In this document: one piece after another, positions 60,455 through 63,400 of the stretch
Layout: each line of letters begins with the position of its first letter
Position numbering within the stretch: the stretch's first letter is position 1
Origin: an uncultured Coxiellaceae bacterium
GTDB lineage: Bacteria; Pseudomonadota; Gammaproteobacteria; DSM-16500
Direction of reading: 5' to 3'
Length of the DNA stretch: 64,000 nucleotides
Assembly (NCBI GenBank): GCA_964622455.1
Contig: CAZUQP010000001.1
Span: 17,472 to 81,471, forward strand
Notes under the pieces: model-generated
The model's input: the letters and a program-made list of their open reading frames with translations, nothing else
What the model was told of the DNA's origin: nothing
Database searches by the model: none
Translations under genes and position numbers: made by a program

Positions 60455-63400
60455 TTAAATCAAAATTTGTTTTTTCTTGCCGTGAGGTGCGGGTAAAAAT
60501 CCTATTTGACATAAATACTGAATAGTTTTTTGTAAAAAGGCTTGATCAATGCTTGGATAAGCAATATTAAGCTCATTCAGTATTTTGTCAGTATGACTAG
60601 TCTCGATGATAGGCGTGATCGGTTCATTTGTTTTGGCAAGGTAATAGGGCAATAAAGGATATAATGCATTATCAAAATGAATTTCAGATAATGCGTGCAA
60701 CCACTCAGGATATTTACTTAACTTGATCGCGTACCCATGATCATTTAGCCATGCGATAATTTGTGTGAAGAGAATTTTTTTAGGTAGATCAAATTGGAAT
60801 ACGTTGCTTTTTTCTAAAGAATGAAGTGATATACTGACGATAGCCTTGCTTACAAAATCGATGGGCTGAAGTAAAATTTTTTGTGTCCGCTTGGGCGCAC
60901 ATTTTAGTTGAATACATCCCTTAACCAATATAAAAAATTCATTATGTGGATACGTGATGCCATTATTTGTTTGGCCAGAAAGATGACCTACGCGATAAAT
61001 GCAAACGGGCAATCCACGGTTTTTGATTTGGGCCAATAAGCGCTCTGCTACCCATTGGCTCATGGCATAATTATCTAATGTTAGATTGATGTTTGTATCT
61101 AAAAATGTTTCAGTTAACCGATGTTTTTTGTCGAATGGCAATGCTGAATACAAGGTTGAAATATAGTGAATAGGCTTATTAAATTTTTGTAAGGCAAATT
61201 TAATAATTTCTGATGTTCCCTGTGCGTAGTAGCTTCGTAATTTGGCGTAAGAAGTCATCCTATTGATATGTGCGGCACCATGATAAATGAGATCAATTTT
61301 TTCAGATAAATTATGATAAAGCTCTAAGGGAATACCGAATTGATCAAGGCTAACATCGCCAGAAATTAAAATAATACGACGGTCCGATAATGAAACTTCA
61401 TTCGATAATTCATATTGATTGATAAGGTGCGTAAGACATTCAGCAGCGCTTTCAAATTTTCCTTTATGGATGAGGCAATAAATCGTAGCGTTTGTTTGTT
61501 CCAATAGTTCTTTAAGCAAATAAATTCCTAAATAATCTGTCACGGAAGTTAATAAAATATGTTGAGGCGGCCCTGATTTTTTGTTTGAAATGGAGTGGGG
61601 CAGTAAATCATCTCGTAAGGTAGCATCGCGTTCAATTTCTTCCGGCAGAGAAGATTGATAAGTGTATTCTTTTCCAGATGATGCAATATATTCAGCTATT
61701 ACAGGAATAAAAGGAAAATTAAATAAAATAGCAGGTGGAATAGCGATATTAAATTTCTCAAGTATTTTTACCGATAATTCTGCGACATGAAGAGAGTTTG
61801 CGCCATAATCAAAAAAATTATCGGTAATGCTGACGCGTTCTAAATTAAATATATTTTGCCAAATATCAGCAATGTTTTTTTCTATTTCATTGCGCGGGGC
61901 CACGTGGTTTCTTTCAAGCAATTGATTAAAATCTTCAGGTGGCGGCAATGATCTCCAATCAATTTTTCCATTAAAAGTCAGCGGAAATTGAGATAATACA
62001 GTTAATGAAGTGGGGATCATATAATCAGGTAGATTTTTTTTCAGTGCTTTTTGCAAATCGCGGCGCGCGGCAGCACTTTGTAAGGTTTCCATTAAATTAT
62101 GAGTTGTTAAATAATATTCGATACATTTTTGTAATAGTGATTTTTGTTTAGGTGTTTGATCAAACTTGATTCCGGCACGTACCGCTTGTTTCCATATGAC
62201 TTTACCGGTGAGCCACTGACTTTCGCTAAATCCTGGAAGTTTTAAGTTGATTTGCAATTCTTGATCCAATGGTAAATCAACTGTATCACCATTGATTGCA
62301 ACACCTTCTTTGGAAATATCTTCACTTAAAAATTGTAAATAACGAACATCATTGGGGGCAATTAAACAGCGGGTTTGATAGGGAATACGGATTCGATCTA
62401 CATTAGGTACAAGATAAGCAATTAATTTTTTTTGTCTTGTTTTTGTTTCTCTTTCAAGGACAACTAGTTCATTTACATCAGTATACTGGCTGAGAGTGAC
62501 GGCAATTTTATTGAGCTCTATTTGATAACCATTCATTTTTATATCGTGATTATTGCGCCCCATAAATTCTAAATTACCATCTTCTAACCAGCGAACCCTA
62601 TCTCCCGTGCGATATAATTTTGCGTCCAGATCACTGATAAATAGATGACGGATAAATTTTTCGCGTGTTAGTTGCGCTCGATTAAAATAACCTGCAGAAA
62701 GATTAGCGCCGCCGATTAAAAGTTCTCCAGCACAGCCAACAGGAACGGGTTCTAAATGATGGTCGACGACATAAACTTCTGCATTTGCAATCGGTTTTCC
62801 GATGGGCGGCGGAATATGTTTAGAAGATTGATTTTCAGGAAGAGTATTGGCCTGAAAAATTTTGATATAAGTGGTCTCAATGGTTCCCTCTGTCGGCCCG
62901 TAAGTGTTCCAAATATCAAATGAAAAAGATTGTCTTGGGTAGTGTAGGATGCTTTCACCGCCTATCTTAACAATCCGTAAATTATTGTTTTCTGGCCATG
63001 GCATATTAAATAATATCTGGGCATAAGCTGTTGGTAAATCGCACACGGTAATTTTTTGGTGTGCAAGCCATGAGAGAAATACAGAGGGAATTAATTTAGT
63101 GTTGTCATCAATAATATGAATACTGGCTCCTACGGTCAAAAAAGGCAGTGTTTCACAAAAAAATGTGTCAAATCCCTGAGAGGAAAATTGAGAGGCGCGA
63201 TCATTCGCTGTCATTAAGAAAGAAGTTTTATACCAATTAATTAAATTAATGAGGCTGTGATGTTTAACTATCACCCCCTTTGGTTCTTCCGTTGTGCCGG
63301 AAGTATAAATAATATAGGCCGCGCGTTCGCCATGCGAAAGTCTTAAGGGTAACGCATGTTTTGAAAATTTTTTCGCTTCTGAATGATTAGCATCCATCAC

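Follow-up and report, generated by a model that had tools for sequence, protein, structure and literature searches.

A PilZ domain within the adenylation domain of a Coxiellaceae NRPS-like enzyme and its putative link to c-di-GMP signalling

An NRPS-like gene at the end of the window

The window analysed here is a stretch of 64,000 nucleotides from an uncultured Coxiellaceae bacterium. At its end lies a gene for an NRPS-like protein which consists of a single module. A remnant of a condensation (C) domain is followed by an adenylation (A) domain, which is interrupted by a PilZ domain, and then by a carrier (T) domain and a thioester-reductase (R) domain (Table 1). An earlier note on this DNA had quoted a number of peptides from this region. 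All of them occur at the coordinates given there, with the minus strand as the coding strand. Translated from the plus strand, 62069-62401 is full of stops and this reading was rejected; the minus-strand reading gives VDRIRIPYQTR...ETLQSAA.

Table 1. Features of the NRPS-like gene and its PilZ insert (window coordinates)
Feature	Position	Strand	Basis and remarks
NRPS-like gene	60455..64000	(-)	C-terminal 1181 codons and stop in the window; ORF list, translation, Pfam, NCBIfam
Condensation domain, C-terminal remnant	63806..63979	(-)	Pfam Condensation, aa 8-65, profile 399-456
A domain, large N-terminal subdomain, cores A1-A7	62684..63739	(-)	PF00501, E 2e-70, aa 88-439
Core A8 GRNNHDIKMNGYQIEL	62513..62560	(-)	aa 465-480 when counted from the start in the ORF list (TTG 63952)
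KKLIAYLVP, final small-subdomain strand ahead of the insert	62405..62431	(-)	Strand 70-78 of the two-domain model; aligned with uninterrupted A domains
Insert NVDRIR...METLQS, PilZ beta-barrel and C-terminal helix	62075..62404	(-)	110 aa; alignment gap, AlphaFold2, Foldseek
Pfam PilZ match, PF07238	62120..62389	(-)	aa 538-627 of the 1181-aa reading
Arg538, counterpart of the second Arg of RxxxR	62387..62389	(-)	Invariant, 107/107
DISKEG, [D/N]hSxxG c-di-GMP motif	62303..62320	(-)	Aligned to NISAGG of MotI 5vx6
PilZ C-terminal alpha-helix PKQKSLLQKCIEYYLTT	62102..62152	(-)	Helix 85-101 of the insert model
Cores A9 LPDYMIP (62012-62032) and A10 NGKIDW (61955-61972), remaining small subdomain	61955..62032	(-)	A10 catalytic Lys retained
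Carrier (T) domain	61685..61873	(-)	PF00550, E 2.6e-10; phosphopantetheine Ser of GANSL at 61793-61795, retained
Thioester-reductase (R) domain	60494..61561	(-)	TIGR01746 and PF07993

About 170 codons at the 5′ end of the gene fall outside the window. The start in the ORF list (TTG, 63952) is an artefact, as the frame is open to base 64000. A second metagenome (L002) carries a near-identical copy of the gene and overlaps the window end with 99.93% DNA identity over 2810 bases, position L002:1900 corresponding to base 64000 of the window. The true start codon is at L002:1390, 510 nt past the window end, and the frame is intact over about 1350 codons. Even with the full N-terminus taken from L002, only about positions 348-456 of the 456 positions of the Condensation profile are matched.

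The residues of an A-T module are present, that is, the Ser of GANSL, the Lys of NGKIDW and the Asp of the A4 motif FD (Asp235), which goes with an alpha-amino substrate. The specificity code was read by eye from the motif anchors as D-T-C-A-K-G-T-I-E-K. It matched no recognised code and we therefore make no claim on the substrate. Lys299 and Glu331 of this code are conserved in the family.

Stand-alone reductases of NRPS type are known, namely the A-T-R enzymes Lys2 (alpha-aminoadipate reductase) and the carboxylic acid reductases as well as MxcG with the order C-A-T-R. The window protein resembles them in its domain order and in its best matches among the NCBIfam profiles, namely TIGR01746, TIGR03443 and, over the T-R part, MxcG, but the scores are far under the equivalog cut-offs. 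It further differs from these enzymes as it has only a remnant of the C domain, carries the PilZ insert and possesses a degenerate R domain.

The insert is a PilZ domain

The span from core A8 to core A10 comprises 196 residues, compared with 88-95 residues in 17 uninterrupted A domains, which were taken from the nearest NRPS hits outside the family. In the alignment with these 17 sequences a single clean gap of about 105-110 residues opens directly behind LIAYLVP, and the match to AMP-binding_C resumes after the insert at position 42 of the 76 profile positions (42-76). Cores A1-A8 stand before the foreign domain and cores A9-A10 behind it. The exact position of the insert is thereby established. 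The gap, which falls within the C-terminal subdomain, agrees with the placement at a8-a9 in the earlier note. The alternative raised there, that the segment is ordinary sequence of uninterrupted A domains, is contradicted by its absence from the 17 aligned domains. The site had also been called the hinge, and here we disagree. The hinge of A domains is the conserved Asp in a8 (GRxD), whereas the insert occupies a loop at the surface of the mobile subdomain. A domains are known to be interrupted at a8-a9, a2-a3 and a6-a7. The site found here is one of these, and the a8-a9 loop is permissive for insertions.

The Pfam profile PF07238 (PilZ) matches the whole protein with an E-value of 1.1e-9 (38.9 bits) and the excised insert with an E-value of 4.2e-11 (43.5 bits); the gathering score is 22.5 bits. 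AlphaFold2 models the insert with a pLDDT of 90.5 as six main strands, with an additional two-residue bridge at 7-8, and two helices, and the model has the six-stranded barrel and the C-terminal helix of a PilZ domain. When this model was compared with the PDB by Foldseek, the best 43 matches were all PilZ domains, with a target-normalised TM-score of up to 0.79. Most of these structures are c-di-GMP complexes (BcsA, MapZ, PA0012, Alg44, MotI). A two-domain model of the small subdomain together with the PilZ domain reached a pLDDT of 83.4, with values of 80-90 at both junctions, and a pTM of 0.67. It matches NRPS A domains, among them the methyltransferase-interrupted 5wmm, as well as PilZ domains. 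The search of the PDB sequences with the family profile yielded only insignificant PilZ matches (E 0.17-0.5) and the fold comparison is therefore needed for the identification. With the Pfam score above the gathering score and the predicted fold, the proposal of the earlier note that the segment is a PilZ domain is confirmed, the PilZ fold is established and a chance resemblance is excluded. The PilZ domain is complete, with an N-terminal loop, the barrel and the helix at its C-terminus.

As for the c-di-GMP motifs, the earlier note had read a DxSxxG motif and a non-canonical RxxxR motif. We likewise find DISKEG, and of RxxxR only the second Arg is kept. Among the relatives the [D/N]hSxxG motif has Asp or Asn, the hydrophobic residue and the Ser in 107/107 sequences each and the Gly in 106/107. 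None of the 107 family members has the first Arg of RxxxR; its position is occupied by Val in the window and by Leu in at least 90% of the family alignment. The register of Arg538 follows from the pattern R-[VI]-P-x4-C, which the insert shares with the canonical homologous inserts RRRRSLRVPMQGSC and DLRRSEPRVPLHTTC (with RRRRSLRVP and DLRRSEPRVP). Since this pattern is shared and the spacing from Arg538 to the Asp of DxSxxG is 23 residues, Arg538 takes the second Arg position of RxxxR. The same pattern and spacing rule out Arg544 (residue R12 of the insert, in QTR-CL), which would be the second Arg of an RxxxxxR variant. In other NRPSs the first Arg is likewise missing in most of the PilZ units directly behind the AYxV strand. 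In characterised PilZ proteins (Alg44, YcgR) mutation of either Arg of RxxxR usually abolishes binding. As only the second Arg is kept, direct binding of c-di-GMP remains putative; the indirect evidence for it is the neighbouring GGDEF-EAL gene (see below).

Conservation, gene neighbourhood and distant relatives

The host enzyme with its domain order C-remnant-A(PilZ)-T-R is conserved in more than 100 homologues of Coxiellaceae type (Gammaproteobacteria), always with an identical insert site. We compared 107 homologues with 41-58% identity and found the insert at the same site with almost no indels. The mean pairwise identity amounts to 47% in the PilZ barrel, 53% in the A core and 28% in the N-terminal remnant, and the family consensus retains all catalytic motifs of the A, T and R domains. 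The conservation of the insert is in this way established. A word-indexed search with the 165-aa insert gave no match, which reflects the sensitivity limit of the index, as the full-length query recovers the family.

Twelve of the 14 family loci have a gene for a GGDEF-EAL protein directly upstream in the same orientation, and this neighbourhood is also established. These 12 loci come from related genomes and are therefore not independent events. The usual gene order is CHASE4-GGDEF-EAL, Gcw_chp, NRPS, with intergenic gaps of 18-30 nt in most loci and of up to about 180 nt in one of them (L016), and the downstream flank of the NRPS gene is variable. In the organism of the window the GGDEF-EAL gene is found just past the window end, as seen in L002, with a gap of 18 nt and intact GGDEF, RxxD and EAL motifs. 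Most relatives have the Gcw_chp gene between these two genes, but the organism of the window lacks it. Two loci (L004 and L006) keep the insert without a GGDEF-EAL gene. The GGDEF-EAL neighbour strengthens the link to c-di-GMP and, together with the PilZ domain in the moving part of the enzyme, suggests that the second messenger could switch this class of enzymes directly.

The insert is not confined to this family. An exhaustive profile search added about 90 clusters of NRPS and PKS-NRPS proteins in which an A domain contains PilZ, and many of these have tandem PilZ domains and a canonical RRxxxR. [quoted passage not shown] In every case which was scanned for domains the interrupted A domain is the last one of the protein and adjoins T-TE, T-R or a terminal T. 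A search for loci with a 13-sequence alignment confirmed at least nine loci, the query containing the generic LPxYMIP pattern. Around the cyanobacterial and myxobacterial PilZ-NRPS loci no GGDEF genes were detected within 8 kb by tblastn.

The author of the earlier note knew of no A domain with such an insert. It holds that no paper describing the arrangement was found: full-text searches of the literature outside the subscription journals gave no description of a PilZ-interrupted A domain or of a PilZ domain within an NRPS or PKS, and a survey of PilZ domains mentions no NRPS or PKS host (10.1101/814665). What does not hold is that the case is unique. With more than 100 close homologues and about 90 distant clusters the co-occurrence of A and PilZ domains is not a one-off, and public Pfam pre-annotation already shows the PilZ insert in such NRPS and PKS-NRPS proteins. 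We tentatively propose that PilZ-interrupted A domains are a class of their own, widespread and so far undescribed, with members in Coxiellaceae, cyanobacteria, myxobacteria and many metagenomic NRPS/PKS-NRPS proteins, in which c-di-GMP might switch an assembly-line enzyme directly at the protein level.

Proposed regulation and alternative explanations

In interrupted A domains a methyltransferase, ketoreductase or oxidase is embedded between a8 and a9, as in TioS A-M-A (PDB 5wmm), and to our knowledge all described cases carry tailoring enzymes. The window protein is similar to TioS in that a foreign domain is placed at a8-a9 with intact cores on both sides. A methyltransferase in module 1 of a Myxococcaceae protein (L013) likewise splits AMP-binding_C at about profile position 42. 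In the window protein, however, the embedded domain is none of these tailoring enzymes but a PilZ domain. In contrast to the methyltransferases this fold, which comprises about 110 aa, is that of a ligand receptor or adaptor and has no catalytic activity, and the implied function is therefore regulation and not tailoring. In a 2020 survey of bacterial interrupted A domains the inserts covered were all methyltransferases which modify the substrate (PMC8341866).

BcsA, Alg44, YcgR/MotI and MapZ, the best structural matches of the insert, share with it the fold and the [D/N]hSxxG motif. In these proteins the PilZ domain is terminal or separate, whereas here it is nested inside a catalytic domain, and they differ from the window family in that the latter is devoid of the first Arg of RxxxR. 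In YcgR/PlzD the N-terminal loop of PilZ is likewise an inter-domain linker. The tandem PilZ inserts of other NRPSs mirror a layout of a degenerate and a canonical PilZ domain in which c-di-GMP binds the linker (10.1101/814665).

The PilZ-interrupted A domain is real and its putative regulation is plausible. We prefer the reading that the insert would be a regulatory module which couples the NRPS-like enzyme to c-di-GMP signalling, and assign to it a probability of about one half. The membrane sensor CHASE4-GGDEF-EAL encoded directly upstream would supply the signal. The N-terminal loop of PilZ would at the same time link the domain to the preceding strand, the last one of the small subdomain (...LIAYLVP-NVDRIR...). 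c-di-GMP would bind at this junction of loop and strand and touch Arg538 as well as Asp561, Ser563 and Gly566. The bound nucleotide would then order the junction and alter the swing or docking of the small subdomain between the adenylation and thiolation states, which in turn could alter the loading of the carrier domain. In YcgR/PlzD and BcsA, c-di-GMP at the N-terminal linker of PilZ shifts the adjoining element and the proposed mechanism would resemble these systems. Both ligand binding and an effect on catalysis, the latter suggested already in the earlier note, are inferred. The preferred reading is supported by the identity, position and conservation of the insert, its motifs, the gene neighbourhood and the canonical inserts of other phyla. 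Against it count the missing first Arg of RxxxR, the common descent of the 12 loci, the two family loci which keep the insert but have no GGDEF-EAL gene, the negative tblastn result around the cyanobacterial and myxobacterial loci and the mutated catalytic motifs of the window's own protein.

The output of NRPSs is thought to be controlled mainly by transcription and by helpers such as MbtH-like proteins. If the preferred reading is true, the moving subdomain of the A domain would contain a receptor domain that acts as a built-in allosteric switch. It would be a new effector output of c-di-GMP by which secondary metabolism is steered at the enzyme level and, as far as we know, the first allosteric control of a nonribosomal peptide/polyketide megasynthase by a second messenger. 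The synthesis of a natural product or signal molecule would be tied to the c-di-GMP lifestyle switch (motile or sessile, host-associated or free-living), and the operon in Coxiellaceae (CHASE4-GGDEF-EAL, Gcw_chp, C*-A(PilZ)-T-R) would constitute a self-contained module from sensor to metabolite. A working insert could moreover serve as a portable control element for engineered synthetases.

Other explanations have to be weighed. The PilZ insert could be a protein-protein adaptor which does not bind c-di-GMP itself. The sensor enzyme encoded next to it would be the likeliest partner, through its EAL or its GGDEF domain, and the dependence on c-di-GMP would be indirect. We consider this rather unlikely. 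A PilZ protein of Xanthomonas docks to the EAL domain of FimX, and the insert resembles this pair (XAC1133/XC1028 and FimX) in that a PilZ domain without a full RxxxR is linked, genetically or physically, to an EAL protein. The universal absence of the first Arg speaks for an adaptor and the adjoining GGDEF-EAL gene fits a physical complex equally well as the sensing of a ligand. The fold matches include the PilZ-FimX complex 4fou, whose identity is 30% over 70 columns, and the non-binding PilZ proteins of type IV pili (3dsg, 4f48, 3cnr) are among the weak PDB matches, which are not significant (E 0.36-0.51). On the other hand, in PilZ proteins of the XC1028 type both c-di-GMP motifs are absent and the barrel is an incomplete one with five strands (10.1101/814665). 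The insert keeps [D/N]hSxxG, which is absent from FimX-binding PilZ (10.1101/814665) and here essentially invariant, and in the model it has the full set of barrel strands and the C-terminal helix. Furthermore, insert and motifs are retained in the loci without GGDEF-EAL. That the insert is a structural passenger, tolerated in a permissive loop and inherited with the gene without any regulatory role, we regard as very improbable. The degenerate RxxxR and the known permissiveness of the a8-a9 loop would allow it, as would the methyltransferase that splits AMP-binding_C at about the same position in another module of the Myxococcaceae protein. Yet the identity of the barrel is near that of the catalytic core and far above that of the N-terminal remnant. 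The 107 sequences show hardly any indels and no variation at the ligand-motif residues, for which the motif counts already suggest purifying selection, and homologous inserts persist in several phyla where they have been duplicated to tandem and triple copies. There is also a very small chance that the insert binds another small molecule, be it a different cyclic dinucleotide, a nucleotide or an intermediate or product of the pathway, which would then exert feedback control. Half of the motif pair is changed in a conserved way, with Asn-Leu for Arg-Arg, and this could mean a changed ligand. The neighbouring GGDEF-EAL gene, however, points to c-di-GMP and we know of no PilZ domain with any other ligand.

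A further explanation concerns only the window's own copy and is compatible with all the readings above, including the preferred one of a c-di-GMP-coupled module. This copy could be a decaying or repurposed pseudoenzyme whose reductase no longer binds NAD(P)H or releases a product, so that the PilZ domain gates no working pathway. We are inclined to doubt this, but the motifs make it a real possibility. The Gly-rich nucleotide motif TGxxGxxG of the R domain reads TSVTDYLG (61526-61549), compared with the family consensus TGagGFLG, in which the first Gly is found in 106/106 and the second in 102/106 sequences. In place of the catalytic YxxxK stands YAMSQ (61055-61069) with Gln for the Lys, which is present in 103/106 family members. 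As a whole the R domain still passes TIGR01746 with 230.7 bits (cut-off 213.35). Since both the Gly-rich motif and the catalytic Lys are missing, catalysis is possibly already impaired in this organism. In the A domain the Asp of the a8 motif GRxD is replaced by Asn (Asp in 102/106 relatives), and the A3 P-loop is TSGTTEEPKG compared with TSGTTG.PKG in the family, with Glu in place of a Gly which is conserved in 101/106 relatives. With the reductase motifs, a8 and A3 mutated in this way, the window's own protein may retain little catalysis that could be regulated. The identity of its R domain to the family is 48%, compared with a family mean of 58%, the Gcw_chp gene is absent from the locus and the G+C content is 0.349 in 60001-64000, against about 0.38-0.43 elsewhere in the window. 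Against decay stands the open frame over the whole length of the gene, as well as the retention of the PilZ motifs, the A7 Asp, the A10 Lys and the Ser of the carrier domain. The near-identical copy in the second metagenome likewise argues against a gene in decay.

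The synthetase gene

On the minus strand a reading frame of 1181 codons, open at the window edge, runs from base 64000 to the stop codon at 60457-60455. TTG 63952, the start on which the residue numbering of the earlier note rests, is an artefact of the construction of the ORF list; the frame stays open to base 64000. The metagenomic contig L002 of the same organism is 99.93% identical over window positions 64000-61191 and carries the start codon 510 nt beyond the window end, and the protein should therefore be about 1350 residues long. Among the matches listed, those most closely related to the gene carry the labels uncultured Coxiellaceae, Aquicella lusitana or Gammaproteobacteria MAGs. 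The domain order was derived from Pfam and NCBIfam scans. The earlier note had placed a PilZ-like segment at 62069-62401. The peptides it quoted are all found where it put them, but the coding strand is the minus strand, the plus-strand translation being full of stops.

Features of the synthetase and of the adjoining ORF (aa, numbering of the 1181-residue reading; nt, window positions)
Feature	Position	Profile range	Strand	Source
Condensation domain, C-terminal remnant		~348-456 of 456 only	-	Pfam/NCBIfam
AMP-binding	aa 88-439		-	Pfam/NCBIfam
PilZ	aa 538-627		-	Pfam/NCBIfam
[D/N]hSxxG motif, DISKEG	nt 62303-62320		-	
AMP-binding_C, second half	aa 645-679	42-76	-	Pfam/NCBIfam
Carrier domain	aa 710-772		-	Pfam/NCBIfam
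Thioester reductase (R) domain	aa 814-1169		-	Pfam/NCBIfam
TGxxGxxG site, TSVTDYLG	nt 61526-61549		-	
YxxxK site, YAMSQ	nt 61055-61069		-	
ORF with chagasin-family peptidase inhibitor (I42) domain	nt 59967-60449		+	

The G+C content over the gene (60001-64000) is 0.349 and approximately 0.38-0.43 elsewhere in the window. The I42 ORF has lpxK on one side and, convergent with it, the 3′ end of the synthetase gene on the other. With the listed TTG as its start the ORF would run into the end of lpxK, so that the true start is probably further downstream.

The inserted PilZ domain

The spacing from core A8 to core A10 is 88-95 residues in 17 A domains from the nearest NRPS hits outside the family, that is, the Coxiellaceae-type homologues with a PilZ domain at the same site, versus 196 in the window protein. 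Alignment with uninterrupted A domains requires a single gap of about 105-110 residues, which begins immediately after the strand LIAYLVP and ends ahead of the helix leading into LPDYMIP. By this alignment the PilZ segment has been inserted between a8 and a9, the classical site. In a Myxococcaceae NRPS, AMP-binding_C is broken at about the same profile position (~42) by a methyltransferase in module 1 and by PilZ in module 2. The hinge of A domains is the Asp of GRxD in a8. The earlier note had taken a8-a9 itself for the hinge; the insertion site is instead a surface loop of the mobile subdomain.

The Pfam PilZ profile (curated cut-off 22.5 bits) scores 38.9 bits in the whole protein (E = 1.1e-9) and 43.5 bits with the excised insert (E = 4.2e-11). 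AlphaFold2, supplied with a 50-sequence family alignment, predicts for a 124-residue segment a PilZ-type barrel (pLDDT 90.5) with six main strands, a 2-residue bridge at residues 7-8 and two helices. A Foldseek search of the PDB with this model gave PilZ domains in all of the top 43 places, mostly from c-di-GMP complexes; BcsA, MapZ, PA0012, Alg44, MotI, PlzA, YcgR, PlzD and MrkH are among them. Modelled together, small subdomain and insert (pLDDT 83.4, pTM 0.67, junctions at pLDDT 80-90) match NRPS A domains as well as PilZ domains; the former comprise DhbF, LgrA, SrfA-C, EntF, GrsA and the methyltransferase-interrupted TioS domain 5wmm.

Both readings of the c-di-GMP motifs in the earlier note stand. 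DISKEG conforms to [D/N]hSxxG, whose D/N, hydrophobic and Ser positions are each kept in 107 of 107 family members and whose Gly is kept in 106. The RxxxR motif is non-canonical as its first Arg is replaced by Val in the window and mostly by Leu in the family, and its second Arg (Arg538) is found in all 107. The register is fixed by R-[VI]-P-x4-C, which is common to homologous inserts with canonical motifs such as RRRRSLR-VPMQGSC of a Myxococcaceae protein and DLRRSEPR-VPLHTTC of the second PilZ in tandem inserts. Asn-Leu in place of Arg-Arg also occurs in other NRPSs, in the majority of PilZ units placed immediately after the AYxV strand. The window PilZ has a C-terminal helix; in YcgR-type proteins the degenerate PilZ-like domain at the N-terminus lacks it (10.1101/814665). 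Judged by its sequence, the insert is a candidate receptor only: its fold is fully canonical, one c-di-GMP motif is intact and the other is half lost.

With the full-length query we retrieved more than 100 clusters (defined at 90% identity) of 1300-1390-residue proteins at 41-58% identity, nearly all pre-annotated with PF07238; the next NRPS hits, at 31-35% identity, are without PilZ. The insert position is identical in 107 of 107 aligned members with almost no indels. Mean pairwise identity is 47% in the PilZ barrel, 53% in the A core, 58% in the R domain and 28% in the N-terminal remnant. The conservation of the barrel is, as read from these alignments, a mark of purifying selection and not of a decaying passenger.

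All catalytic motifs are kept in the family consensus and the window protein is an outlier. Its R domain (48% identity to the family, family average 58%) has lost the Gly-rich nucleotide motif TGxxGxxG, whose first Gly is kept in 106 of 106 relatives, and carries Gln for the catalytic Lys of YxxxK (Lys in 103/106). Further, the Asp of GRxD in a8 is Asn (Asp in 102/106) and a Gly of the A3 loop is Glu (Gly in 101/106). Reductive release is probably impaired in the window's copy, which nevertheless retains the carrier Ser, the A10 Lys and both the intact and the altered PilZ motif as found in the family.

Gene neighbourhood and possible function

In the window's organism a GGDEF-EAL gene (L002:1-1371; GGDEF E = 8e-51, EAL E = 8e-72) precedes the synthetase gene on the same strand, with 18 nt between its end and the synthetase start. 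The GGDEF and EAL motifs and the RxxD site are all intact; the N-terminus lies past the contig end, and any CHASE4 region like that of the relatives would be outside this sequence. Among the matches listed, 12 of the 14 family loci have the orthologous gene immediately upstream. The usual order is CHASE4-(HAMP)-GGDEF-EAL, then Gcw_chp (PF09694, a family of unknown function) and last the synthetase, with intergenic gaps of 18-30 nt in most loci and up to about 180 nt in one (L016); what follows downstream differs between loci. The Gcw_chp gene, intervening in most relatives, is absent in the window's organism. Since the genomes are related, the 12 loci represent one arrangement kept over long divergence and not independent events. 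The adjacency is suggestive of a link to c-di-GMP, though not proof. In five loci (L001, L014, L015, L016, L017) the three genes, ending with C*-A(PilZ)-T-R, form a unit on one strand. An smr gene and a PRK-family kinase gene lie upstream of the unit and the downstream genes vary.

A conserved PilZ domain is thus nested, rigidly according to the prediction, in the mobile subdomain, and a c-di-GMP-metabolising sensor gene adjoins. We suggest the following mechanism. The N-terminal loop of PilZ, on which Arg538 lies, doubles as the link to the subdomain's last strand. If a nucleotide binds at the junction, facing the DISKEG loop, the junction would become ordered; this would alter the swing or docking of the small subdomain and hence carrier loading. 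We give this reading, c-di-GMP binding that alters subdomain movement and loading, a probability of roughly one half. In its main rival, which we consider doubtful, the insert binds no nucleotide directly and acts as an adaptor; it might, for instance, dock to the neighbour's EAL domain in the manner of Xanthomonas PilZ and FimX. The lost Arg of RxxxR speaks for such a role, the invariant [D/N]hSxxG against it. A functionless passenger and the binding of a different ligand are both improbable, the former in view of the selection on the barrel.

PilZ-interrupted A domains beyond the family

In an exhaustive HMMER search, 1.84 billion representative proteins were compared with the insert profile; 437 matches reached E ≤ 1e-3, and 104 of them E ≤ 1e-10. 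About 90 of the best 150 of the 437 are flanked by A8 and/or A9/A10 cores. As far as these cores tell, the PilZ-in-A-domain arrangement reaches far beyond the window's family. Pfam scans revealed C-A(PilZ)-T in Halothece, C-A(MT)-T-C-A(PilZ)-T-TE in a Myxococcaceae MAG, KS-AT-KR-ACP-C-A(PilZ x2)-T in hybrids, C-A(PilZ x2)-T-TE, a two-module protein ending with A(PilZ x2)-T-R and a three-module protein whose last A domain contains PilZ in triplicate. In all cases scanned, the interrupted A domain is the protein's last and adjoins T-TE, T-R or a terminal T.

Full-text literature searches, with subscription journals outside their reach, turned up no NRPS or PKS described as having a PilZ domain inside it, in line with the earlier note, which knew of no A domain with a c-di-GMP receptor fold. 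A 2020 survey of bacterial interrupted A domains (PMC8341866) contains methyltransferase inserts only and no PilZ, and a study of PilZ diversity (10.1101/814665) likewise mentions no such host. Public pre-computed annotation already shows the domain hit, so the sequences are not hidden. New, on the domain assignments, would be an interrupted A domain with a regulatory receptor fold as passenger instead of a tailoring enzyme.

In tandem inserts the first PilZ has a single Arg and the second the canonical RRxxxR and [D/N]hSxxG. This layout is shared with YcgR-like proteins, in which c-di-GMP binds the inter-domain linker (10.1101/814665). Six representatives (P0129, P0135, P0143, P0122, P0137, P0142) carry tandem PilZ, triple in one, in the last A domain; the hosts of such inserts are multi-module NRPS and PKS-NRPS proteins. 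Two others, P0121 (aa 1948-2070 and 2183-2305) and P0123, carry two consecutive copies of the whole unit of AYIV strand, PilZ and helices. The junction sequences (VAYIVSNLRPERTPF...) are nearly identical, which points to a recent duplication of the interrupted segment within the protein. In Nostoc flagelliforme FACHB-838 (L012:6125-9536) the PilZ-carrying A domain looks disrupted, probably by a deletion or frameshift (pseudogene or assembly error): the first frame encodes TubC-docking, C and an A domain that stops after its first ~87 profile positions, and the second starts inside PilZ and runs on to T-TE.
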